NCBI RefSeq assembly: GCF_058153355.1
Contig: NZ_CM177019.1
Direction: 5' to 3' (one strand)
Length of the DNA stretch: 64,000 nucleotides
A program made the translations under genes and the position numbers. Of this stretch, positions 1,996 to 14,720 are shown piece by piece; position 1 is the first letter of the stretch; each line of letters starts with the position of its first letter. The notes under the pieces were generated by a model that worked only from the letters and a program-made list of their open reading frames with translations, was not told the origin of the DNA and searched no databases.

Positions 1996-3357
1996 GTGGA
2001 AAAAGAAAATATCACCCTCGATCCGCGTTCTTCATTTACTCCATCTTCGTCGGCAGATATTCCCGTGCCACCAGATGGATTAGTTCAACGCAGTACCCGA
2101 ATTAAACGCATTCAAACCACCGCCATGTTGTTATTATTTTTTGCGGCGGTAATCAATTATCTCGACCGCAGTTCACTGTCGGTAGCAAATTTAACGATTC
2201 GTGAAGAATTGGGATTAAGTGCCACCGAAATCGGCGCTTTGCTCTCCGTGTTTTCACTCGCTTACGGGATTGCGCAACTTCCTTGCGGCCCACTATTGGA
2301 TCGTAAAGGCCCGCGCCTGATGCTGGGACTGGGGATGTTCTTCTGGTCACTGTTCCAGGCAATGTCTGGCATGGTGCACAGCTTTACGCAGTTCGTGTTG
2401 GTGCGTATCGGTATGGGGATTGGTGAAGCGCCGATGAACCCATGCGGTGTAAAAGTCATTAACGACTGGTTCAACATCAAAGAGCGCGGACGCCCGATGG
2501 GCTTCTTCAACGCAGCTTCTACCATTGGCGTTGCCGTAAGCCCACCGATTCTGGCGGCGATGATGCTGGTGATGGGCTGGCGCGGGATGTTTATTACCAT
2601 TGGTGTACTGGGGATTTTTCTCGCCATTGGCTGGTATATGCTCTATCGCAACCGCGAGCACGTAGAACTGACTGCCGTTGAACAAGCCTATCTCAATGCC
2701 GGTAGCGTCAATGCCCGCCGTGATCCACTCAGTTTTGCTGAATGGCGCAGCCTGTTCCGTAACCGCACAATGTGGGGAATGATGCTCGGATTCAGTGGCA
2801 TCAATTACACTGCGTGGCTGTATCTGGCCTGGCTGCCAGGTTACCTGCAAACAGCCTATAATCTGGATTTAAAAAGCACCGGGTTGATGGCGGCTATCCC
2901 TTTCCTGTTTGGGGCTGCCGGGATGCTGGTCAATGGTTACGTTACCGACTGGCTGGTCAAAGGAGGAATGGCTCCGATTAAAAGCCGTAAGATCTGCATT
3001 ATTGCCGGGATGTTCTGTTCTGCCGCCTTTACGCTGGTAGTACCGCAAGCGACAACATCCATGACAGCGGTTCTGCTGATTGGCATGGCACTGTTCTGTA
3101 TTCACTTTGCTGGAACATCCTGCTGGGGATTGATCCACGTCGCTGTCGCTTCTCGCATGACTGCATCGGTGGGCAGTATCCAGAACTTTGCCAGCTTCAT
3201 CTGCGCCTCTTTCGCGCCGATCATTACTGGTTTTATTGTCGATACCACCCACTCATTCCGTCTGGCGCTAATCATCTGCGGTTGCGTCACCGCGGCGGGT
3301 GCACTGGCATACATCTTCCTGGTTCGTCAGCCGATCAACGACCCACGTAAAGATTAA
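1996..3357 (+). CDS. lgoT: MFS transporter, L-galactonate:H+ symporter
   Basis: 453-aa multi-TM MFS protein, GTG start after ACAGGAG RBS; length and position match K-12 YjjL/LgoT. Confidence 0.85.
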   Translation: MEKENITLDPRSSFTPSSSADIPVPPDGLVQRSTRIKRIQTTAMLLLFFAAVINYLDRSSLSVANLTIREELGLSATEIGALLSVFSLAYGIAQLPCGPLLDRKGPRLMLGLGMFFWSLFQAMSGMVHSFTQFVLVRIGMGIGEAPMNPCGVKVINDWFNIKERGRPMGFFNAASTIGVAVSPPILAAMMLVMGWRGMFITIGVLGIFLAIGWYMLYRNREHVELTAVEQAYLNAGSVNARRDPLSFAEWRSLFRNRTMWGMMLGFSGINYTAWLYLAWLPGYLQTAYNLDLKSTGLMAAIPFLFGAAGMLVNGYVTDWLVKGGMAPIKSRKICIIAGMFCSAAFTLVVPQATTSMTAVLLIGMALFCIHFAGTSCWGLIHVAVASRMTASVGSIQNFASFICASFAPIITGFIVDTTHSFRLALIICGCVTAAGALAYIFLVRQPINDPRKD

Positions 3358-3405: not shown

Positions 3406-5070
3406 TTAAAACGTTTCCCAGTTCTCTCCGCTATCTGCCACTGCCACTTTGCGCGGCGCAGATGGCGTCACAGTTTTTACTACTGCCGATGCTTCGCGCT
3501 GGCGTTGCTGCTCTTGCTGAATCCGGAACACTGCCACAGCTTCGGTCAGGCGACTGGCCTGCTCCTCCAGCGCGGCGGCGGCGGCGGCAGATTCTTCCAC
3601 CAGCGCGGCGTTTTGTTGGGTTACCCGGTCCATCTCAGCTACTGCTAAGCCAACCTGATCGATACCACGGCTCTGCTCATCAGAAGCCGAAGCAATTTCG
3701 CCCATAATGTCCGTCACGCGGGTCACAGCGCTGACAATCTCTGCCATGGTTTCCCCGGCGCTTTCGACCAGCGTAGAGCCAACATCCACTTTGCCCACCG
3801 AGTCTTCAATCAGGCTTTTAATTTCGCGAGCCGCCTGAGCGCTACGCTGGGCCAGATTACGCACTTCTCCCGCAACCACCGCAAAACCGCGCCCTTGCTC
3901 ACCCGCACGCGCTGCTTCAACCGCCGCGTTCAAAGCCAGAATATTGGTCTGGAAGGCAATGCCGTCAATTACGCTGATAATATCGGCGATTTTCTGCGAA
4001 CTGGTGGAGATATCGCGCATGGTCTGCACCACGTTATCCACCACTTTGCCGCCGCGTTGCGCCGTTTCGGAAGCACTTAACGCCAGGTGGCTGGCCTGAC
4101 GCGCATTTTCGGCGTTCTGCTTCACCGTTGCGGTCAGTTGCTCCATGCTGGCTGCCGTCTCTTCCAGCGAAGCGGCCTGTTGCTCGGTGCGCGAAGAAAG
4201 ATCGTTATTGCCGGTGGCGATTTCGCTGGCACCGCTATAGATAGCATTGGCCCCGTTGCGCACATCACCGACGGTACGCATCAGCTCTCCCTGCATATGG
4301 CGCAAACTCTCTGCCAGTTGCCCCATCTCATTAGAACCATCCACCTCAATCGGTTTCACCAGATCGCCACCTGCAATATGACGAATGCTGTCAATCAGGC
4401 GATTCATTGGCGCTACCAACGAGGCTTTAATACCGAACCAGACGGCGAAGATGACTGCCAGTACGACGATCATCACGCCCACCAGAATCCACATCGCCTG
4501 GCTGTAGGAGGCATTATTATCGCTGACGGCGATATCATAGAGCCGATCGTTTTGCTCCATGTAAGCCACATACTGCTTCTCGAAACCGTCCTGATATCCC
4601 TGAGTCGGCTGATCAAAGAATTCGTTGATTTTGCCTGCACCTAACAGTTGGATCAGTTCCGCCAGCGCATTGTGATAAATATCGTAATTACGTTTGATCT
4701 CTGCCGCTGCGGCGGTGCTCTGACGCGGGTCACGCGGCAATGCTTCGTAATCCGCCCAGTTTTTTTCCGCCTGTTTCAGCGAAATACTGGCACTCTGCAT
4801 CAGCTCGGCAACGGTTGAACCGCTACCAATATTGTTCTGATCCATCATGTAGCGGATCCCCGCGCGGTTGAGGGTGTTACGCGTCTGTAACAACGCGACC
4901 CAGCTGCCATTCAGCGTGGATTGCTGCTGGCGAATGGTTTGTAAAACAGTGAAATTTTCTTTGTCATTCTTTAAGGCATTAAAGAACAGACCGCCTGATG
5001 TCAGTTGTAAAAGGCCAAAAACGGCCAAAACCAGCAGTAAGCTGGTCACGATCTTGATACGTTTTAACAT
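3406..5070 (-). CDS. tsr: Methyl-accepting chemotaxis protein I (serine chemoreceptor)
   Basis: [14 protein letters not shown]-terminus, periplasmic ligand domain, conserved MCP signalling region ([32 protein letters not shown]), C-terminal NWETF. Start taken at Met6 of the listed ORF. Confidence 0.95.
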
Positions 5071-5101: not shown

Positions 5102-5128
5102 TTGTCGGCCTGGTGGTGGAAAACTTTA
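5102..5128 (-). promoter_or_regulatory. sigma28 (FliA) class-III flagellar promoter of tsr
   Basis: Minus strand reads TAAAGTTT-N11-GCCGACAA, near-perfect match to FliA consensus TAAAGTTT-N11-GCCGATAA, about 30 nt upstream of the tsr start. Confidence 0.7.
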
Positions 5129-5209
5129 TGCTGTGGAAAAGCGTCGGCACTGCTTTTGTTGCAGCAAACTTGCGTTTTTTGTGAGGGTCACACTCTATAG
5201 CGGCAGTTT

Positions 5210-6115
5210 ATGGTACAAAGTATCAATCTTCTTCGAACCAGTGATACTCCCATGGCTTATAGCATCGATATCATCTCCTGTATTACCGAACGGTTTATGG
5301 CGTTAACCGCCACTGAAAAGCGTATCGCACAATTTATTCTTGATGACGTCTCTGCCGCAGTAGAGTTGCCAATTGCTGAGCTGGCACGGTTAACGCAAAC
5401 CAGTCAGGCGTCGGTGACGCGTTTTGCCCGTGCTCTGGGGTGCAAAGATGTCCGCGAGTTGAAAGTCAAACTGGCGCAGTCACTGGCTGTCGGGCAGCGG
5501 TTTATTCTCGATGTACCGGATCTTGACGGTGTTCAGGGGATCTACGAAGCGATTATTAGCGTGCTGGAAACGCATCGTCGTTCGCTGGATATGAATGCCA
5601 TCAGCCAGGCTGTAAGCTGGTTAAGTCAGGCGCGGCAAATTCTTGCGTTAGGAACTGGCGGCGGTTCCACTATCTGTTCACAGGAGATTCAGTACCGTTT
5701 ATTCCGTCTGGGGCTACCGGTGGTCAGTCAGAATGATGCCCTGATGATGAGAATGATGTGCTCGGCAGTGATGCCGCAGGATGTGGTGATTGTGCTGTCG
5801 CTGGGCGGTTATACACCGGAAATCATCGAAAGTGCGGCAATCGCCCGTCAGTATGGCGCGCGTGTTATTGCCATTACGCCAGCACAAACACCGCTGGCAG
5901 AACAGGTAGATCTGGTATTGCCGTTACTGGTTCAGGAGAGTGATTACATTTTTAAGCCCACCCCTTCCCGCTACGCGATGTTAGCCATGGTCGATGTACT
6001 GGCAACAGAACTGGCAATGGCAAATAAAGCGCAGGCGAAAGATCGCCTGCGGCGGATAAAACTGGTGTTAGACAGCCACCGTGGGGGCGCTAACCGCCAG
6101 CCACTTGGCGATTAG
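5210..6115 (+). CDS. RpiR/MurR-family transcriptional regulator (HTH_6 plus SIS sugar-phosphate-binding domain)
   Basis: HTH segment LARLTQTSQASVTRFARALGCKDVRELK; SIS-like ILALGTGGGS; start uncertain (Met at 5210, 5252 or 5297). Confidence 0.75.
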   Translation: MVQSINLLRTSDTPMAYSIDIISCITERFMALTATEKRIAQFILDDVSAAVELPIAELARLTQTSQASVTRFARALGCKDVRELKVKLAQSLAVGQRFILDVPDLDGVQGIYEAIISVLETHRRSLDMNAISQAVSWLSQARQILALGTGGGSTICSQEIQYRLFRLGLPVVSQNDALMMRMMCSAVMPQDVVIVLSLGGYTPEIIESAAIARQYGARVIAITPAQTPLAEQVDLVLPLLVQESDYIFKPTPSRYAMLAMVDVLATELAMANKAQAKDRLRRIKLVLDSHRGGANRQPLGD

Positions 6116-6124
6116 CATTGTCGG

Positions 6125-7594
6125 TTATGCTTCTTCAGGTTTGGTGATCACGACACTCTGGTTTTCACGCTCATTGGTGATAATAGCCAAAGCTTCTTCC
6201 CGGCTGACCTGACTTGCTGGCGTTACCAACGTCACCAGTACGCCAGCGACCAGGCTGCCCAGCACTGACGGAATACACGGGTTACCCCAGTAAGCCAGCC
6301 AGTCGGCATTCATCAGCACCACAATTGACATCACCATACCGCTCACTAACGCCGCCAGCGCGCCCTGCCAGTTAAAGCGTAGCCAGAAGCGACCGAGAAT
6401 CGAGCAGATAAACAGCCCGGACATCAGCATCGAAATCATTTTGGTAATGTAGCTGATGATGTCATTAGAGGTCAGAGCAAAGACCAGCGCCAGGCCAATA
6501 ACAAAGGTCAACATCCAGCGTGAGTAAGTAATGGCCTTGTCCTCCGGCGGCATTCTGCCGGTAATCATGGTGTAGACGTCGCGCATCATAATCGCCACCG
6601 CCGCGATGGCATCGGAGCTGGCGGAAGACATGGTGGCTGAAAGCCCGGCAATCAGCACCACCAGCCCAAGAATGGCAGGTAAGAAACTGGTCGCGAACAA
6701 GAAGGCGTAGTTGCTGTTTTCCAGATTTGGGTTCATGGTGAACGCCGCCATGCCGATAATGGCAGGCAGAATCGAGAAGAACAGATACAACACGCCAGTA
6801 ATAACAAATGAACGCCGTACAGAGGGAACGTCTTTTCCCGAGTAAATACGCTGGCGATAAGACGGTGTTGCCAGCACACCTACGCCAATAACCAGTGCCA
6901 GCGAAAGCGCAGGCAGCACGCCCATTTTATCAATCGCAAACAGGCTCATCGCTTTTGGGTCCATCGCCTGCTCAATCGCACTCCAGCCGCCAACGTGAAC
7001 AACGGCAAGAATAGCCATTAATATAAAGCCAAAGAACAGAATTAGGGCCTGAATAGTATCTGTCCACACTACCGCCGAATAACCGCCGATAATAACGTAA
7101 ATCGCAAAGGCCAAAGCGATAATTAATTTTGCTACAGTAAGATCAATACCCGTCGCCCAGGCAAGATACATACTGCCACCTAATATATGCGCTCCCAGCC
7201 AGCCAATAGAGGCAATAAATATCATCAGGCCGACAATATTTTTAATTAAATGGCTGCCGCCAGTATAATAAGATATTTCTTCACTCATGGTCATAAAACG
7301 TAATTTACGTACCGGTGCAAACAGCCACGCCACCAGTAATATACCTACGGCCCCACCGACGCCATAAAGCATTCCGGCCCAGCCATTGCTGTAGCCAAAG
7401 CCCACTGCGCCCATACTGGAACCCGTGCCAACCATCGTGGCAACGGTTGACCCCAGCGTCAGAAACAGCGGCAGCGAACGCCCGCCCAGCAGAAAATCTT
7501 CTCCGCTTTTCTGATTACGAGAAACAAACCAACCAAGCCAAATCATGGCGATGGCATAAATAATAAAGCCGACTAAAAAGATATGACTGTTCAT
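6125..7594 (-). CDS. Sodium:solute symporter (SSS) family transporter
   Basis: 489-aa polytopic membrane protein with SSS-type N-terminal region (GGRSLPLFLTLGSTVATMVGTGSSMG). Confidence 0.75.
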   Translation of the reverse strand: MNSHIFLVGFIIYAIAMIWLGWFVSRNQKSGEDFLLGGRSLPLFLTLGSTVATMVGTGSSMGAVGFGYSNGWAGMLYGVGGAVGILLVAWLFAPVRKLRFMTMSEEISYYTGGSHLIKNIVGLMIFIASIGWLGAHILGGSMYLAWATGIDLTVAKLIIALAFAIYVIIGGYSAVVWTDTIQALILFFGFILMAILAVVHVGGWSAIEQAMDPKAMSLFAIDKMGVLPALSLALVIGVGVLATPSYRQRIYSGKDVPSVRRSFVITGVLYLFFSILPAIIGMAAFTMNPNLENSNYAFLFATSFLPAILGLVVLIAGLSATMSSASSDAIAAVAIMMRDVYTMITGRMPPEDKAITYSRWMLTFVIGLALVFALTSNDIISYITKMISMLMSGLFICSILGRFWLRFNWQGALAALVSGMVMSIVVLMNADWLAYWGNPCIPSVLGSLVAGVLVTLVTPASQVSREEALAIITNERENQSVVITKPEEA

Positions 7595-7696
7595 AATTCA
7601 CATCCTGCCAGTAGAGAGAAATTAATGTAAGAGTTCCCGGAGTGCTGAATGTATTCAGCACTCAATTGCGGTCTGTTTTTTTAATTCTTAAATTTA

Positions 7697-8092
7697 TTAG
7701 CGGGTCGCGTTATAACAGGTCACATCGACTTCGACTTTACAATCGACAACCAGATCAGCCACACAACAAATACGTGCAGGCGGATTCTCGCCAAAAAATT
7801 CTCTGAATACTTTATTAAATGACTGGAAATAGCGGGCGTCGGTCAGGATCACTTTCACGTGAACCACATCCGCCAGGCTATAACCGGCTTCAGTCATGAT
7901 GTCGACACAGTTTTGGATCGCCAGTCGTGACTGTTCAACGATTCCGCCTTCTACCACTTCACCGTTTTTCATGGGTGTTTGCCCGGAGACGTACAGCCAG
8001 CCGCCCGCCTCAACCGCCCTGGCAAAAGGCAAATGCTGCCCGCCAGTGCCTGTTCCACCTTCCGTACCGTAACGTTTAATGCTCATATTCAC
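7697..8092 (-). CDS. RidA/YjgF-family reactive enamine/imine deaminase
   Basis: 131-aa protein with RidA-fold signatures; 3 bp downstream of the aminoacylase gene. Confidence 0.8.
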   Translation of the reverse strand: MNMSIKRYGTEGGTGTGGQHLPFARAVEAGGWLYVSGQTPMKNGEVVEGGIVEQSRLAIQNCVDIMTEAGYSLADVVHVKVILTDARYFQSFNKVFREFFGENPPARICCVADLVVDCKVEVDVTCYNATR

Positions 8093-8095
8093 TCC

Positions 8096-9547
8096 TTAAT
8101 GTGAGGTCTGCCGGCGCAGGAAGCGTCCCGCACGGCCTGTAATGTGTTTATCGCGACCATAGCTCATAACGCCGTTCACCATCACCGCCTCAATGCCATC
8201 TGCCGGGCGTTTGGGATCAGAAAAGCTGGCAACATCACGAATGGTTTGTGGATCGAACAACACCAGGTCCGCAAAATAGCCAACTTTCACCAGTCCACGC
8301 TGGGGCAGGCGAAAACGGCTGGCAGAAAGCCCGGTCATTTTGTGGATAGCCGTGGTCAGTGGGAATAAGCCTTCATCACGGCAATAGTGGCCCAGCACGC
8401 GAGGGAAGGCGCCCCATAAACGTGGATGCGGCATGGGATCATTGGGCAGGCCGTCAGAGCCAATCATACTGACCGGATAACTCAACACTCGGCGGACGTC
8501 GCGCTCGTCCATGTTGTAATAGATAGCCCCGGCAGGCATTAGCAGCTTCGCGGCCTCCAGCATACTCATCTGCCAGTCGATGGCGATTTGCGCCAGTGTT
8601 TTCCCGGCCTGCTGCGGATGTGTTTGTGACCAGGTGATCACAATATCGAATTCGTCGGTGACTTGTTTGAGATCCAGCGTTGAAGAGCTGGCTGAGTAAG
8701 GGTAGACATCGCAGCCAATTTCCTGGTGTTGACGCATTTGGTCAAAAAAAGCCAATGTTTCTTTTGTCCGCCCCCAGTTTTTCGCCCCGGCGCATTTATG
8801 GTGGGAAACCACGATAGGCACTTTGCCATGACGCCCAATACGAAACGCCTCATCCAGGGCATCGAGAATCGGTTCAAATTCAGAACGCAGATGGGTGGTA
8901 TAAACGCCCTTCTCACCGGCTAATTCTTCCGCCAGCGCCATGACTTCTTCGGTAGTCGCCTGAAATGCCGTTGCATAGGCCAGCCCGGAACTTAACCCCA
9001 GCGCCCCCTGACTCAACGCCAGACGTAAGTCGGCACGCATAGCGGCAATTTCATCCACCGTCGCCGGGCGAAACAGGTCGTCCATATGGTTATTACGCAG
9101 CGCCGTATGACCAATCAGCGTGCCAACGTTCAGTGACGGCCTGGCTGCTTCCACTGCCTGGGCATAGCTTTCAACGGTGGGATAAATAAAGTGCTCTGCT
9201 TCCCCCAACAGATTCATCGGGTCAGGAACTTCACCTTTCATTTTCGCCGACGCCGCACTAATCCCGCAGTTACCGACAATCACCGTAGTGATCCCCTGGC
9301 TGATCTTTGGCAGATATTCCGGGATGCGAATAACGTTGATATCGTCATGGGTATGAACGTCGATAAACCCTGGTGCCAGCACCCGCCCTTCCCCGTCAAT
9401 GACCTGCTGCGCCGTAACGTTAAGCGCAGGGGCAATATCGACAATCCGATCACCTGTTATTGCCACGTCACCGCGAAATTCAGGGCCGCCGCTACCGTCG
9501 ATAACGGTCACATTTTTGATTAACCAGTCAACCTGCATGTTCGTCAC
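8096..9547 (-). CDS. N-acyl-D-amino-acid deacylase (D-aminoacylase) family amidohydrolase
   Basis: 483 aa; metal-binding HTHDD motif near N-terminus, GNCG segment, length typical of D-aminoacylases. Confidence 0.75.
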   Translation of the reverse strand: MTNMQVDWLIKNVTVIDGSGGPEFRGDVAITGDRIVDIAPALNVTAQQVIDGEGRVLAPGFIDVHTHDDINVIRIPEYLPKISQGITTVIVGNCGISAASAKMKGEVPDPMNLLGEAEHFIYPTVESYAQAVEAARPSLNVGTLIGHTALRNNHMDDLFRPATVDEIAAMRADLRLALSQGALGLSSGLAYATAFQATTEEVMALAEELAGEKGVYTTHLRSEFEPILDALDEAFRIGRHGKVPIVVSHHKCAGAKNWGRTKETLAFFDQMRQHQEIGCDVYPYSASSSTLDLKQVTDEFDIVITWSQTHPQQAGKTLAQIAIDWQMSMLEAAKLLMPAGAIYYNMDERDVRRVLSYPVSMIGSDGLPNDPMPHPRLWGAFPRVLGHYCRDEGLFPLTTAIHKMTGLSASRFRLPQRGLVKVGYFADLVLFDPQTIRDVASFSDPKRPADGIEAVMVNGVMSYGRDKHITGRAGRFLRRQTSH

Positions 9548-9738
9548 TCCATTTCTGCAATGGTGACAAGTTAACCATTTACAAGGACGAAAAACAGTGG
9601 AAAACTACGCAAAACCCAGATGATTTTATGATACTTTTATTCATAAACTATAAGATAAATAAACTAAATATTTATATTTCATTTAGTTACAAATGATACC
9701 CATATCCGATACGGTGAAAAACTTAAAAGGTAAATGTT

Positions 9739-10959
9739 ATGAAATACCACTCAGAACCTCTGGTTCCCCATAAATCGGCCCTGATGCAAATGCCCGCAAA
9801 TCTCCTTGCCGAAGATGTCTGTTTACCTGCCGCGATCATTAAAAAGCAGGCCCTGGAGAACAACATTACGTGGATGCAACGCTACGCTGACGCGCGCGGC
9901 GTTTCACTGGCACCGCACGGTAAAACCACCATGACGCCGTGGATTTTTCAGGCGCAGCAGGCGGCAGGCGCCTGGGCAATAGGTGTCGGTAGCGCATGGC
10001 AGGCTGGTGCGGCAATGGCGAGCGGTATTCAGCGTGTGCTGATGGTTAACCAGTTGATCGGCAAGGCAAATATGCAGTTGATTGCCCGGTTGCAACGACA
10101 TTACCCGACGGTCGATTTTATCTGCTGTATCGACAGCATTGAGAACGCCCGCGCTTTGTCTGCCTTTTTTGCCAGTCAGCAACAGACACTGAACGTGATG
10201 ATTGAGCTGGGTGTTCCCGGCGGACGCTGTGGTTGCCGCTCAACGGATGCAGCACTGGCACTGGCTAAACAGGCGGCCCAATTACCAGGGCTACGTCTGC
10301 GCGGGCTTGAGTTATATGAAGGTGTTTTACACGGTGACGATCCACAACCGCAGGTAGAAGCTCTGCTGCGGGATGCCGCACAACTGGCCTGTGATATGGC
10401 AAGTTTGGTTGATGGCGAGTTTATTCTCACCGGAGCAGGCACGGTCTGGTATGACGTGGTGTGCAATATCTGGCTGGCGGCAGAAAAGCCTGATAACTGC
10501 CGCATTGTTATTCGCCCTGGCTGCTACATCACTCACGACACCGGGATCTACGACGCGGCACAACAACAGTTGCTCGCCCGTGATCCTGTGGCCTGTGATC
10601 TGGCAGGCGATCTCACATCTGCGCTGGAACTGGTCGCCATGGTGCAATCGGTGCCGGAAGCTGATCGTGCGGTGGTAAATTTTGGTAAGCGTGATTGCGC
10701 CTTCGACGCCGGACTGCCGCAACCAGTCGCCCACTATCGCAACGGCAAATCACTGGCATTTGATCCACAGGCGATTCGCAGTACAGGTATTATGGATCAG
10801 CACTGCATGTTGCAACTGTCAGCTAATAGCGACGTGCAAGTGGGGGATATTCTGGTGTTTGGCACATCGCATCCGTGCCTGACCTTCGACAAATGGAAAA
10901 CGTTGTTATTGGCTGATGACGACTACAACGTACTGGCGGAATTAGACACTCTCTTCTAA
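9739..10959 (+). CDS. Alanine-racemase-fold PLP enzyme of the DSD1 / D-threonine aldolase / D-serine dehydratase-like family
   Basis: 406 aa; PLP-lysine motif APHGKT near N-terminus; divergent from the aminoacylase operon across an AT-rich 190-bp spacer. Confidence 0.7.
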   Translation: MKYHSEPLVPHKSALMQMPANLLAEDVCLPAAIIKKQALENNITWMQRYADARGVSLAPHGKTTMTPWIFQAQQAAGAWAIGVGSAWQAGAAMASGIQRVLMVNQLIGKANMQLIARLQRHYPTVDFICCIDSIENARALSAFFASQQQTLNVMIELGVPGGRCGCRSTDAALALAKQAAQLPGLRLRGLELYEGVLHGDDPQPQVEALLRDAAQLACDMASLVDGEFILTGAGTVWYDVVCNIWLAAEKPDNCRIVIRPGCYITHDTGIYDAAQQQLLARDPVACDLAGDLTSALELVAMVQSVPEADRAVVNFGKRDCAFDAGLPQPVAHYRNGKSLAFDPQAIRSTGIMDQHCMLQLSANSDVQVGDILVFGTSHPCLTFDKWKTLLLADDDYNVLAELDTLF

Positions 10960-10964
10960 GAATA

Positions 10965-10996
10965 CCCCTTCGGTTAATTATCGAAGGGGCATTTTT
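10965..10996 (+). terminator. Rho-independent terminator after the DSD1-like gene
   Basis: ccccttcg / cgaagggg stem followed by CATTTTTATT. Confidence 0.7.
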
Positions 10997-11042
10997 ATTG
11001 TGATCTCAATCACATATCCACCCGACGAATAATTCTTGCCCA

Positions 11043-11070
11043 ACCGCTCACCGCCATTCCTGACCGCTTA
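11043..11070 (+). promoter_or_regulatory. Direct-repeat BtsR (YehT) response-regulator site upstream of btsT
   Basis: ACCGCTCA-N12-ACCGCTTA direct repeat about 280 bp upstream of btsT; matches the ACC(G/A)CT(C/T)A repeat motif I recall for the yjiY promoter. Confidence 0.55.
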
Positions 11071-11349
11071 CGTCCCAAATATAACCACTCAGTTATTTAC
11101 CTTACTTTACGCGCGCGTAACTCTGGCAACATCACTGCAGGATAGCGGTCAATTTACCTCCTCAAACGCAACGCAAACCTAGAACGGCTTCGGCCTATGA
11201 TTAACAAATTACTCTATGGATTTTGGTTTGCAGGAAGGCAGCAAGTGAGTGAATCCCCGGGAGCTTACAAAAGTAAGTGACAGGGGTGAACGAACGCAGC
11301 TGCCGCACCTGTAAGCCAAAAGACGACGAGTAAAATGCCAGGTTTTACT

Positions 11350-13500
11350 ATGGATACGAAAAAACTATTCAAGCACATACCCTGGGTGATTCTTGGAATC
11401 ATCGGTGCATTCTGCCTCGCGGTAGTTGCATTACGTCGGGGGGAGCACGTCAGCGCCCTGTGGATCGTGGTCGCCTCTGTGTCGGTGTATCTGGTGGCTT
11501 ATCGCTACTACAGTTTGTACATCGCCCAGAAAGTGATGAAACTCGACCCCACGCGCGCGACGCCTGCGGTTATTAACAATGACGGTCTGAACTATGTTCC
11601 GACCAACCGTTACGTGTTGTTTGGTCACCACTTCGCCGCTATCGCCGGTGCTGGTCCGCTGGTTGGTCCGGTTCTCGCCGCGCAGATGGGCTACCTGCCT
11701 GGCACGCTGTGGTTGCTGGCGGGGGTAGTGCTGGCCGGTGCGGTTCAGGACTTTATGGTGCTGTTTATCTCCTCTCGCCGTAACGGCGCATCTCTCGGTG
11801 AGATGATCAAAGAAGAGATGGGACCAGTACCGGGGACTATCGCGCTGTTTGGCTGTTTCTTAATCATGATCATCATCCTCGCCGTTCTGGCGCTGATTGT
11901 GGTTAAAGCCCTGGCCGAAAGTCCGTGGGGTGTCTTCACCGTTTGCTCAACCGTACCAATTGCGCTGTTTATGGGTATCTACATGCGCTTTATCCGTCCG
12001 GGGCGTGTAGGTGAAGTCTCTGTTATTGGTATCGTGCTGCTGGTTGCCTCTATCTACTTCGGTGGTGTGATTGCTCACGATCCGTACTGGGGTCCGGCAC
12101 TGACCTTTAAAGACACCACCATTACCTTCGCACTGATTGGCTATGCGTTTGTTTCCGCACTGCTGCCGGTGTGGCTGATCCTCGCACCGCGCGACTATCT
12201 GGCAACCTTCCTGAAAATCGGCGTTATCGTCGGCCTGGCGCTGGGTATCGTGGTGCTGAACCCGGAACTGAAAATGCCTGCGATGACCCAGTACATTGAC
12301 GGTACTGGCCCGCTGTGGAAAGGCGCTCTGTTCCCGTTCCTGTTCATCACCATCGCCTGTGGTGCGGTATCTGGCTTCCACGCGCTAATCTCTTCCGGTA
12401 CGACGCCGAAACTGCTGGCTAACGAAACCGACGCGCGTTTCATCGGCTACGGTGCAATGCTGATGGAGTCCTTCGTGGCGATTATGGCGCTGGTTGCTGC
12501 GTCCATCATCGAACCGGGTCTTTACTTCGCGATGAATACTCCGCCTGCGGGCCTTGGCATCACCATGCCTAACCTGCATGAGATGGGTGGCGAGAACGCG
12601 CCGATCATCATGGCACAACTGAAAGACGTTACCGCACACGCGGCAGCGACCGTCAGCTCCTGGGGCTTCGTGATTTCGCCAGAGCAGATCCTGCAAACCG
12701 CGAAAGACATTGGTGAGCCTTCTGTCCTGAACCGTGCAGGTGGTGCGCCGACGCTGGCGGTAGGTATCGCTCACGTGTTCCACAAAGTGCTGCCGATGGC
12801 TGACATGGGCTTCTGGTATCACTTCGGTATTCTGTTCGAAGCCCTGTTCATCCTGACCGCGCTGGATGCGGGTACCCGTTCTGGCCGCTTTATGCTGCAG
12901 GACCTGCTGGGTAACTTCATCCCGTTCCTGAAAAAAACCGACTCTCTGGTTGCTGGTATCATCGGTACTGCGGGCTGTGTGGGTCTGTGGGGCTACCTGC
13001 TGTATCAGGGCGTGGTCGATCCGCTGGGCGGCGTTAAGAGCCTGTGGCCGCTGTTCGGTATCTCCAACCAGATGCTGGCAGCCGTGGCGCTGGTACTGGG
13101 CACCGTTGTGCTGATTAAGATGAAACGCACCCAATACATCTGGGTAACTGTTGTTCCGGCTGTATGGCTGCTTATCTGCACCACCTGGGCGCTGGGCCTG
13201 AAACTGTTCAGCACCAACCCGCAGATGGAAGGCTTCTTCTACATGGCAAGCCAGTACAAAGAGAAGATTGCTAACGGTACTGACCTGACGGCACAGCAGA
13301 TTGCCAACATGAACCACATCGTTGTGAACAACTACACCAACGCAGGCCTGAGTATTCTGTTCCTGATTGTGGTGTACAGCATCATCTTCTACGGTTTCAA
13401 AACCTGGCTGAAGGTGCGTAACAGCGACAAACGTACTGACAAAGAAACACCGTACGTTCCAATCCCGGAAGGCGGCGTGAAGATCTCTTCGCACCACTAA
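11350..13500 (+). CDS. btsT: CstA-family pyruvate/H+ symporter
   Basis: 716 aa from MDTKKLFKHIPWVILG; CstA-family membrane protein; followed by yjiX and yjiA. Confidence 0.95.
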   Translation: MDTKKLFKHIPWVILGIIGAFCLAVVALRRGEHVSALWIVVASVSVYLVAYRYYSLYIAQKVMKLDPTRATPAVINNDGLNYVPTNRYVLFGHHFAAIAGAGPLVGPVLAAQMGYLPGTLWLLAGVVLAGAVQDFMVLFISSRRNGASLGEMIKEEMGPVPGTIALFGCFLIMIIILAVLALIVVKALAESPWGVFTVCSTVPIALFMGIYMRFIRPGRVGEVSVIGIVLLVASIYFGGVIAHDPYWGPALTFKDTTITFALIGYAFVSALLPVWLILAPRDYLATFLKIGVIVGLALGIVVLNPELKMPAMTQYIDGTGPLWKGALFPFLFITIACGAVSGFHALISSGTTPKLLANETDARFIGYGAMLMESFVAIMALVAASIIEPGLYFAMNTPPAGLGITMPNLHEMGGENAPIIMAQLKDVTAHAAATVSSWGFVISPEQILQTAKDIGEPSVLNRAGGAPTLAVGIAHVFHKVLPMADMGFWYHFGILFEALFILTALDAGTRSGRFMLQDLLGNFIPFLKKTDSLVAGIIGTAGCVGLWGYLLYQGVVDPLGGVKSLWPLFGISNQMLAAVALVLGTVVLIKMKRTQYIWVTVVPAVWLLICTTWALGLKLFSTNPQMEGFFYMASQYKEKIANGTDLTAQQIANMNHIVVNNYTNAGLSILFLIVVYSIIFYGFKTWLKVRNSDKRTDKETPYVPIPEGGVKISSHH

Positions 13501-13509
13501 CCGTGTTTA

Positions 13510-13536
13510 GCCCCGCTTCGGCGGGGCTTTGTTCTT
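13510..13536 (+). terminator. Rho-independent terminator after btsT
   Basis: gccccgc-ttcg-gcggggc hairpin followed by TTTGTTCTT. Confidence 0.7.
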
Positions 13537-13549
13537 ATCAGAGTGAACT

Positions 13550-13753
13550 ATGTTTGGTAACTTAGGACAGGCAAAAAAATATCTCGGCCAGGCGGCGAAG
13601 ATGTTGATTGGCATTCCAGACTACGACAACTACGTCGAGCATATGAAGACCAACCATCCCGACAAGCCGTACATGAGCTATGAAGAATTCTTCCGCGAAC
13701 GCCAGAACGCGCGCTACGGCGGCGATGGTAAAGGCGGTATGCGCTGTTGTTAA
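13550..13753 (+). CDS. yjiX: Small conserved protein (DUF466, CstA-associated)
   Basis: 67-aa ORF directly downstream of btsT. Confidence 0.85.
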
Positions 13754-13763
13754 TGGAGAGAGC

Positions 13764-14720
13764 ATGAACCCGATTGCAGTTACCCTACTCACCGGTTTTT
13801 TAGGCGCAGGCAAAACCACCCTGCTGCGCCATATTCTTAATGAACAGCACGGCTACAAAATTGCCGTGATTGAAAACGAATTCGGCGAAGTCTCCGTTGA
13901 TGATCAACTGATTGGCGACCGCGCCACGCAGATCAAAACGCTGACCAACGGCTGCATCTGTTGTTCGCGCTCCAACGAGCTGGAGGACGCGCTACTCGAC
14001 CTGCTGGATAATCTCGACAAGGGCAATATTCAGTTCGACCGTCTGGTCATTGAATGCACAGGCATGGCCGATCCCGGCCCGATTATTCAGACCTTTTTCT
14101 CCCATGAGATTTTATGCCAGCGTTACCTGCTGGACGGCGTGATTGCGCTGGTGGATGCGGTACATGCCGATGAGCAGATGAACCAGTTCACCATCGCCCA
14201 GTCACAGGTTGGCTACGCCGACCGCATTCTGCTGACCAAAACCGACGTCGCAGGCGAAGCAGAAAAACTGCGTGAACGCCTGGCGCGCATCAACGCCCGC
14301 GCACCGGTCTACACCGTCACCCACGGCGACATCGATCTGGGCCTGCTGTTCAACACCAACGGTTTTATGCTGGAAGAAAACGTCGTCAGCACCAAACCGC
14401 GTTTCCACTTTATCGCGGATAAACAAAACGATATTTCGTCGATTGTGGTGGAACTGGATTACCCGGTAGATATCAGCGAAGTTTCTCGGGTGATGGAAAA
14501 CCTGCTGCTGGAATCGGCGGATAAACTGCTGCGTTACAAAGGGATGCTGTGGATTGACGGCGAACCAAATCGCCTGCTGTTCCAGGGCGTCCAGCGCCTC
14601 TACAGCGCCGACTGGGACCGCCCGTGGGGCGATGAAAAACCGCATAGCACAATGGTGTTTATCGGGATTCAGCTGCCGGAGGAAGAGATTCGGGCTGCGT
14701 TTGCGGGGTTGAGGAAGTAA
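13764..14720 (+). CDS. yjiA: CobW/P47K-family GTPase
   Basis: 318 aa from internal Met (GGAGAG RBS); P-loop GFLGAGKTT. Confidence 0.9.
   Translation: MNPIAVTLLTGFLGAGKTTLLRHILNEQHGYKIAVIENEFGEVSVDDQLIGDRATQIKTLTNGCICCSRSNELEDALLDLLDNLDKGNIQFDRLVIECTGMADPGPIIQTFFSHEILCQRYLLDGVIALVDAVHADEQMNQFTIAQSQVGYADRILLTKTDVAGEAEKLRERLARINARAPVYTVTHGDIDLGLLFNTNGFMLEENVVSTKPRFHFIADKQNDISSIVVELDYPVDISEVSRVMENLLLESADKLLRYKGMLWIDGEPNRLLFQGVQRLYSADWDRPWGDEKPHSTMVFIGIQLPEEEIRAAFAGLRK

Follow-up and report, generated by a model that had tools for sequence, protein, structure and literature searches.

An Escherichia coli island between tsr and btsT is a probable ong module for the catabolism of an N-acetylated hexosaminic acid

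2-Acetamido-2-deoxy-D-gluconate (GlcNAc1A) is the C1-oxidized form of N-acetylglucosamine (GlcNAc), and it arises from lytic polysaccharide monooxygenases (LPMOs) or sugar oxidases acting on chitin or GlcNAc. The ong cluster of Pseudoalteromonas prydzensis ACAM 620 breaks this compound down to 2-keto-3-deoxygluconate (KDG), acetate, and ammonia (Jiang et al., Nat Commun 2022, PMC9537276). OngIT is an importer of GlcNAc1A of the sodium:solute symporter (SSS) family, OngB converts GlcNAc1A to D-glucosaminate (GlcN1A) plus acetate, and the pyridoxal phosphate (PLP) enzyme OngC converts GlcN1A to KDG plus NH3. The RidA protein OngD is essential in vivo, the MurR/RpiR protein OngR is a repressor, and growth of P. 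prydzensis on GlcNAc1A needs each gene (PMC9537276). Here, we analyze a 64,000-nucleotide window of Escherichia coli DNA (NCBI RefSeq GCF_058153355.1, contig NZ_CM177019.1; the window is the whole stretch examined) that carries an island of five genes between tsr and btsT. An original prediction made from the DNA letters took the island for a module for the uptake and catabolism of ordinary N-acyl-D-amino acids. The comparisons below suggest that it is probably an E. coli ong module that scavenges an N-acetylated 2-amino-2-deoxy-hexonic acid, most likely GlcNAc1A.

The gene starts were chosen to agree with the PGAP annotation of the E. coli locus L001, which is 98.8% identical, and with the lengths of homologues. 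The five genes of the island are the following.

5252–6115, plus strand: ongR-like MurR/RpiR-family regulator, 287 amino acids, Pfam HTH_6 and SIS
6125–7594, minus strand: ongIT-like SSS sodium:solute symporter, 489 amino acids, Pfam SSF
7697–8086, minus strand: ongD-like RidA, 129 amino acids, Pfam Ribonuc_L-PSP
8096–9538, minus strand: ongB-like metal-dependent de-N-acetylase of the D-aminoacylase fold, 480 amino acids, Pfam Amidohydro_3
9739–10959, plus strand: ongC-like fold-type III PLP deaminase, 406 amino acids, Pfam Ala_racemase_N and D-ser_dehydrat

All five open reading frames (ORFs) that had been placed between tsr and btsT are present and intact, they are full length relative to their homologues, and the Pfam search returned exactly the domains that had been predicted for them. 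The start of the regulator agrees with PGAP in L001 and with 287-residue homologues. The deacylase has 480 residues with the PGAP-matching start, not the 483 first proposed, and the translation of the RidA gene contains the 'PAR' arginine motif. The deacylase, RidA, and transporter genes form a minus-strand unit as proposed. The gap of about 100 bp is found between the RidA and transporter genes (102 bp), but the gap between the deacylase and RidA genes is 9 bp rather than 3 bp. The regulator and transporter genes are convergent, and 9 bp separate their stop codons. The PLP gene is divergent from the deacylase gene across a 200-bp AT-rich spacer and has the terminator of its own that had been assigned to it. 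Searches of the five proteins against NCBIfam gave matches below the cut-offs only (HexR 199 versus 296, PRK09061 155 versus 340, and BhcC 106 versus 690), and these name no function.

The window proteins align over their full lengths with the Ong proteins of Pseudoalteromonas sp. ZZD1, with identities of 44% for OngR, 58% for OngIT, 84% for OngD, 54% for OngB, and 45% for OngC. ZZD1 was used because a 2.7-kb contig (P0001) was the only one found with the exact sequence of P. prydzensis OngB (PpOngB); ZZD1 stands in for ACAM 620 for four of the five proteins, and its OngB is 92% identical to PpOngB. Vibrio loci cluster the same genes, with identities to the window proteins of 51–55% for the regulator, 68–69% for the symporter, 85–86% for RidA, 61–62% for the deacylase, and 44–46% for the PLP enzyme. 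By the definition of Jiang et al., an ong cluster has four or more homologues of the ACAM 620 ong genes located together, with E < 1e-5 and identity > 30%. The island has five of five, at 44–84% full-length identity to ZZD1. The ong-cluster carriers in Supplementary Data 3 of that study include 13 E. coli strains, E308 among them, together with one E. fergusonii and one Escherichia sp.; for the E. coli strains, ongC, ongR, ongB, ongD, and ongIT are present and lpmo, kdgK, ongA, and ongOT-1 are marked absent (PMC9537276). The island of E308 is located where the locus tags of Jiang et al. put the E308 ong cluster. The island is an already catalogued member of the described ong system, and the novelty of the locus is therefore low. 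The kind of system has been described before; the additions made here are the precise boundaries, evidence for an ancestral position with differential loss, the connection to a crystallized Klebsiella enzyme, KleDacyl, and an observation that relates the kinase and aldolase genes linked to these clusters, of the DgoK/DgoA type, to an Asn at position 348 of OngB.

The island and the P. prydzensis cluster share the same five protein families but differ in their surroundings and arrangement. The island is without a TonB receptor, the GH20 hexosaminidase OngA, and KdgK. P. prydzensis has an ongCRBD operon, whereas the ongR-like gene of the island is separate and convergent with the transporter gene. 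Neither an AA10 LPMO, nor TonB-dependent receptors, nor a periplasmic GH20 OngA was found within the island, which has the cytoplasmic monomer branch only. E. coli would therefore be restricted to free monomer that other organisms produce. Homologues of DgoK, DgoA, KdgK, and Eda are absent from the 64-kb window, as are homologues of the two ORFs located downstream of eda in the Vibrio locus.

The deacylase carries the most specific information about the substrate. PpOngB has a subtype V metal site composed of Cys97, His222, and His252 and a catalytic Asp368 (Wang et al., JBC 2025, PMC12017989). The carboxylate and acetamido groups of the substrate are bound by L116, Y194, K254, Y285, S291, L370, and R379, the C3–C6 hydroxyls are bound by Ser292, Glu226, Ser290, and Gln298, with Glu226 at the C4-OH, and the small residues Ala193, Ala256, and Gly348 open the pocket (PMC12017989). 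The window deacylase aligns with PpOngB (PDB 9kb1) without gaps (E 5e-167, 53% identity), and 17 of the 18 metal, catalytic, and substrate-binding positions are identical in a MAFFT alignment. PpOngB hydrolyzes GlcNAc1A only and leaves N-acetyl-D-amino acids uncleaved, as do two homologues with identities down to 57%, and the kcat/Km of PpOngB for GlcNAc1A is 1.6 per s per mM (PMC12017989). The enzyme PpOngB shows little activity or none at all with N-acetyl-D-serine or N-acetyl-D-glutamate (PMC9537276, PMC12017989).

The D-aminoacylases AfDam (Alcaligenes faecalis, 1M7J) and BbDam (the Bordetella N-acyl-D-glutamate deacylase, 3GIP) do not hydrolyze GlcNAc1A (PMC12017989). They share with the window deacylase the fold, the Cys/His/His metal site, the catalytic Asp, and the residues that bind the alpha-carboxylate and acetamido groups. 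The difference lies in the specificity residues, where their Phe191, Met254, Thr, Leu298/Arg295, and Met346 are replaced in the window by Ala, Ala, Ser, Gln, and Asn. In the MAFFT alignment, the discriminating positions are F, M, G, T, and M in AfDam. The test for a D-aminoacylase pocket was negative, the window pocket being neither hydrophobic as in AfDam nor basic as in BbDam (Arg295) but of the polar OngB type.

The PLP enzyme has as its closest solved relative an uncharacterized 'D-serine deaminase' (PDB 3gwq, E 1e-106), and PDB 7dib, 4v15, 6qkb, and 3wqc follow at E 1e-27 to 1e-17. It resembles the group of DSD1-type D-serine dehydratase, D-threonine aldolase, and D-threo-3-hydroxyaspartate dehydratase in having an Ala_racemase_N domain and a C-terminal D-ser_dehydrat domain. 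The relation is distant, however, and with 106 bits against the BhcC cut-off of 690 the protein falls outside that specific equivalog. Its PHGKT and SHPC motifs are conserved with the Klebsiella, Vibrio, and Pseudoalteromonas copies (the L059 row of the alignment is a wrong-strand ORF and was disregarded), and we take them to be the PLP lysine motif and the His-x-Cys metal motif of the family, respectively. OngC forms its own clade and acts as a deaminase on D-serine and on D-threonine as well as on GlcN1A (PMC9537276).

The case for an ong module is made from the homology, residue conservation, synteny, and distribution observed in this analysis. Each enzymatic step and the repression have been demonstrated for the marine homologues, and by analogy the E. 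coli proteins would have the same roles. The SSS symporter (6125–7594) would import the free N-acetyl-hexosaminic acid, and the zinc amidohydrolase (8096–9538) would take off the acetyl group to give D-glucosaminate. The PLP enzyme (9739–10959) would then eliminate the C3 hydroxyl and the amino group to give KDG and ammonia, and RidA (7697–8086) would speed the hydrolysis of the enamine/imine that follows the PLP step. The RpiR-type protein (5252–6115) would keep the genes repressed until substrate or a product is present. No kinase or aldolase is encoded in the island, and core E. coli enzymes must therefore complete the pathway. K-12 has kdgK, eda, dgoK, and dgoA, which are both possible kinase/aldolase pairs. 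The keto-deoxy acid would presumably be finished by KdgK/Eda, or by DgoK/DgoA if the substrate were the galacto epimer. The logic of uptake, N-deacylation, PLP-dependent alpha,beta-elimination, and RidA action that had been read from the island holds, but the substrate class assigned to it is not supported, given the full-length homology to a cluster that degrades GlcNAc1A. Formally, GlcNAc1A is an N-acyl-D-amino acid; it is, however, a sugar acid with six carbons that yields KDG.

Several points weigh against this assignment. The comparison for four of the five proteins was made with ZZD1 and not with ACAM 620 itself. PpOngB position 348, which is Gly in P. prydzensis, is Asn in the window deacylase, and the same Asn occurs in KleDacyl and in all aligned Enterobacterales and Burkholderiaceae copies. 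KleDacyl hydrolyzes N-acetyl-D-Met, -Phe, -Trp, and -aminobutyrate enantiospecifically (PMC12149444). The nearest relatives of the island carry kinase and aldolase genes of the galactonate type (DgoK/DgoA) and not of the gluconate type (KdgK/Eda), and the exact epimer is therefore uncertain. The transporter operon of P. prydzensis is outside OngR control (PMC9537276), and therefore regulation may differ. A literature search found no GlcNAc1A experiment for E. coli or for any enterobacterial cluster, and on enterobacterial ong clusters it yielded no papers other than those cited here.

The loci of other genera considered here are those among the matches listed, and the Klebsiella and Pseudoalteromonas loci were reached through PDB sequences and homologous-protein searches. 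A DGOK-family kinase (Pfam E 4e-90) and an aldolase follow the transporter or RidA gene in Leclercia, Klebsiella, Rahnella, Buttiauxella, Cedecea, and five Paraburkholderia loci. On the KDPGal-aldolase model the linked aldolase reaches 302 bits, compared with 116 on eda; its score is 286 bits with E. coli DgoA (2v81) and 57 with Eda. The Vibrio and Pseudoalteromonas clusters, with Gly or Cys at position 348, have KdgK and Eda instead. Among the matches listed, Asn348 is present in all 25 enterobacterial and Burkholderiaceae OngB sequences and in no others aligned; DgoK/DgoA genes are linked in 14 of the Asn348 loci and KdgK in none. The linkage of the enterobacterial version to DgoK/DgoA is not discussed in the ong papers (PMC9537276, PMC12017989). 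A 2-keto-3-deoxy-hexonate kinase and aldolase in the closest clusters fit a hexonate substrate and not derivatives of serine, threonine, or aspartate.

These genes raise the question of the epimer. The substrate of the enterobacterial and Burkholderiaceae clade might be N-acetyl-D-galactosaminic acid, which would be converted to 2-keto-3-deoxy-galactonate and finished by DgoK/DgoA, the De Ley–Doudoroff route. We regard this alternative as possible but rather unlikely. The DGOK-family kinase and DgoA-like aldolase of the enterobacterial and Paraburkholderia clusters speak for it, as do the confinement of Asn348 (25 sequences) to lineages with KdgK nearby in none and the pairing of Gly/Cys348 with KdgK/Eda in Pseudoalteromonas and Vibrio. 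The correlation comes from only two or three independent lineages, however, and every residue that contacts a hydroxyl of GlcNAc1A is conserved, including Glu226 at the C4-OH. In addition, the kinase/aldolase pair has been dropped in E. coli, Franconibacter, and Shimwellia, and a literature search found nothing on galactosaminate catabolism or a natural source of the compound. We tentatively suggest that the enterobacterial/Burkholderiaceae branch may prefer the galacto epimer or accept both epimers, feeding DgoK/DgoA. If the galacto epimer were the substrate, the clusters would encode an undescribed catabolic route for oxidized N-acetylgalactosamine (GalNAc) in gut and soil bacteria, and the published Klebsiella 'D-acylase' would be a sugar-acid deacetylase. 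GlcNAc1A is still the most likely substrate of the E. coli island.

Pseudomonas has a different arrangement. In the locus L014 (7673–11437) and at least 54 other loci, the gene for an OngB-like deacetylase (62–64% identical, with Gly348) is accompanied only by genes for an RpiR regulator and a permease of the GntP family. RidA and the PLP deaminase are absent from the neighborhood in all but one (L041) of the Pseudomonas loci among the matches listed. A sugar-acid permease of the GntP type as partner of the OngB-like gene again speaks for a hexonate as substrate.

KleDacyl of Klebsiella pneumoniae (WP_002887553.1, PDB 9G5M/9GV8) is the solved structure with E 1e-281 and 84% identity to the window deacylase. 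It was characterized on N-acetyl-D-amino acids only, for biocatalysis, and the paper does not mention GlcNAc1A or sugar acids (PMC12149444). Its Km values for the N-acetyl-D-amino acids are 19–32 mM and its kcat/Km values are 1.5–2.8 per min per mM; for N-acetyl-D-Met, the kcat/Km is 2.8 per min per mM with a Km of 32 mM (PMC12149444). The crystal contains glycerol at Glu220, Lys248, and Asn342 (PMC12149444), which correspond to PpOngB Glu226, Lys254, and position 348. KleDacyl and the window deacylase share the Gln of the specificity position as well as Asn342, and KleDacyl is encoded in the orthologous Klebsiella cluster beside lgoT/lgoR. That cluster differs in keeping the DGOK kinase and DgoA-like aldolase genes, both of which are lost in E. 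coli, and the clustering of the KleDacyl gene with them points to a hexonate substrate. Since the enzyme belongs to an ong-type cluster and its paper is silent on sugar acids, its physiological substrate is probably mis-stated, and we infer that the D-acylase activity is a side activity. This connection joins two literatures: the Klebsiella enzyme crystallized in 2025 as a D-acylase is encoded by an ong cluster, and the ong work of 2022 and 2025 suggests another physiological substrate.

Activities of these enzymes also speak for the original prediction, in which N-acetyl-D-serine, -threonine, -aspartate, or -methionine would be deacylated and then undergo dehydration or aldol cleavage of the D-serine/D-threonine type. 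The 84%-identical KleDacyl does hydrolyze four N-acetyl-D-amino acids, and OngC does act as a deaminase on both D-serine and D-threonine. The efficiency of KleDacyl is very low, however, and PpOngB is little active or inactive on the N-acetyl-D-serine and N-acetyl-D-glutamate offered to it. Where AfDam and BbDam have hydrophobic or basic specificity residues, the window deacylase has Ala, Ala, Ser, Gln, and Asn. A linked hexonate kinase and aldolase, like the Pseudomonas GntP permease, would make no sense for amino acids of three or four carbons, and the regulator is of the SIS type that senses sugar phosphates. Ordinary N-acyl-D-amino acids as the substrate are thus not borne out by the polar OngB pocket, the inactivity of PpOngB and its two homologues on N-acetyl-D-amino acids, or the hexonate kinase and aldolase of the relatives, and we consider this reading improbable.

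The distribution of the island was determined in complete E. coli genomes, a check for presence/absence polymorphism that the original prediction had called for. The island core is present in 193–194 of the 5,426 genomes (~3.6%), on the chromosome only and at 98.1–99.1% identity. About 3.6% of complete E. coli genomes could use C1-oxidized N-acetyl-hexosamine freed by the LPMOs or oxidases of other organisms. The flanking core genes (11350–14720) are at most 98.7% identical to any of the 5,426 genomes and the island at most 99.1%, and the source lineage is therefore not represented in this set. Among 60 sampled island-positive genomes, about 19 come from chicken, turkey, and other birds, and carriers of the island may be enriched in poultry.

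Within E. coli, the description of the locus as an accessory island is accurate. It does not appear to be a new acquisition, however, but looks ancestral and differentially lost. The exact KleDacyl sequence is encoded in two Klebsiella loci (L086 and L087, 9001–10440) in the gene order C / B-D-T-DGOK-aldolase / R (letters as in the ong gene names, T being the transporter), and the cluster adjoins lgoT/lgoR/lgoD. Leclercia adecarboxylata has the same gene order next to tsr and lgoT. Because the same cluster adjoins lgoT in both genera and tsr in Leclercia, the position of the island appears to be ancestral in enterobacteria, and the island was probably not gained by E. coli but lost from most of its strains. 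A recent horizontal origin was also weighed and is less likely, given the core-like GC content and the conserved position by lgoT/tsr in Leclercia and Klebsiella. The C-terminal 10 residues of the window symporter differ from those of Klebsiella and Leclercia exactly where dgoK-dgoA would begin, which fits a deletion of the kinase/aldolase pair in E. coli. The Franconibacter and Shimwellia clusters are also without the pair.

Loss of this kind could have left a functionless remnant in E. coli, stripped of its kinase and aldolase and of the neighboring modules. Consistent with such decay, 96% of complete E. coli genomes lack the island, the dgoK-dgoA pair is deleted, and the C terminus of the transporter is altered at the junction. 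Yet all five ORFs are full length relative to their homologues, the carriers keep the whole island at 98.1–99.1% identity with no pseudogene flags in the rows listed, and core E. coli supplies both possible kinase/aldolase pairs. We find decay very improbable and retain the functional ong module as the explanation.

The tsr–btsT spacer is a multi-state hotspot in E. coli (5086–11349 of the window compared with L082, L083, L084, and L001). K-12 has nothing there, E2863 has the hpa (4-hydroxyphenylacetate) cluster, the window and L001 have ong by itself, and E308 has ong together with a hydroxyproline-catabolism module. In Klebsiella the ong, hydroxyproline, and hpa genes adjoin one another, an arrangement that suggests an ancestral block from which parts were lost step by step.

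The boundaries of the island were located by blastn of the K-12 spacer against the window. K-12 homology runs to 5130 and starts again at 11044, and the island-specific DNA is 5131–11043, or 5,913 bp in place of 135 bp of the K-12 tsr–btsT spacer. The gene order in the window is lgoT (1996–3357, plus strand), tsr (3406–5070, minus strand), the five island ORFs, btsT (from 11350, plus strand), yjiX, and yjiA. The original prediction had tsr and btsT adjacent in K-12, and this is correct; in the K-12 derivative C600 they are neighbors with a spacer of 377 bp, and the five genes are not there. The elements at the edges of the island and within it are the following.

5102–5128, minus strand: sigma28-type tsr promoter in flanking core DNA, TAAAGTTT at 5128–5121, N11, and GCCGACAA at 5109–5102
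7640–7663, between the RidA and transporter genes: perfect 11-bp palindrome, GAGTGCTGAAT-AC-ATTCAGCACTC on the minus strand
9539–9738, no strand assigned: AT-rich divergent putative control region of the ongB-like and ongC-like genes, with conserved blocks and a near-palindrome at 9656–9689
10965–10999, plus strand: intrinsic terminator 3' of the ongC-like gene, found by the terminator scan at 10965–10989 plus a T-run, with a 10-bp stem containing 6 G-C pairs
11043–11070, plus strand: direct repeat 5' of btsT in flanking core DNA, ACCGCTCA (11043–11050) and ACCGCTTA (11063–11070)

The left edge of the island abuts the sigma28-type tsr promoter, as read from the sequence, and we assume from the consensus that the motif at 5102–5128 is a FliA (sigma28) promoter. 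On its right side the island borders the ACCGCTCA / ACCGCTTA direct repeat, which is presumably a BtsR/YehT-type site. The island does lie between these two elements as had been described, but its right edge is at 11043 and not 11000. The GC content of 0.44–0.57 per 500 bp is similar to that of the flanks and agrees with the core-like composition noted earlier.

The putative control region between the deacylase and PLP genes contains three blocks (9568–9585, 9590–9614, and 9629–9643) that are nearly invariant across 13 Enterobacterales loci of different genera. They are likely promoter or operator elements, but a palindrome could not be assigned to them consistently. No consistent RpiR-type operator could be derived from the conserved blocks and palindromes of the island. 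A sigma70 scan gave 7 sites versus 6.9 expected in shuffles, and therefore no promoter is claimed. The palindrome at 7640–7663 has CTGAATAAACAG-centered related hairpins at the corresponding place in Leclercia, Klebsiella, and Vibrio rumoiensis. A strong hairpin or palindrome with the center CTGAATA(A/C)A is found at 7640–7663 in the window, at ~11890–11925 in L002, at ~10900–10940 in L086, and at ~12100–12120 in L049. This palindrome could be an RNA hairpin that acts as a processing or stability element, or an operator or other binding site.

An Rfam scan gave no match inside the island, and its sole match, to V_AS5, was weak (31.6 bits, less than the gathering score) and fell on an ERIC-like element outside it. 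This ERIC/IRU-like repeat of ~130 bp at 11205–11334 separates the btsT control region from the start of btsT and includes GTGAATCCCCGGGAGCTTACAAAAGTAAGTGACAGGGGTGAACG. It is not in K-12, which has 7 bp there, and parts of it match other chromosomal sites and plasmids.

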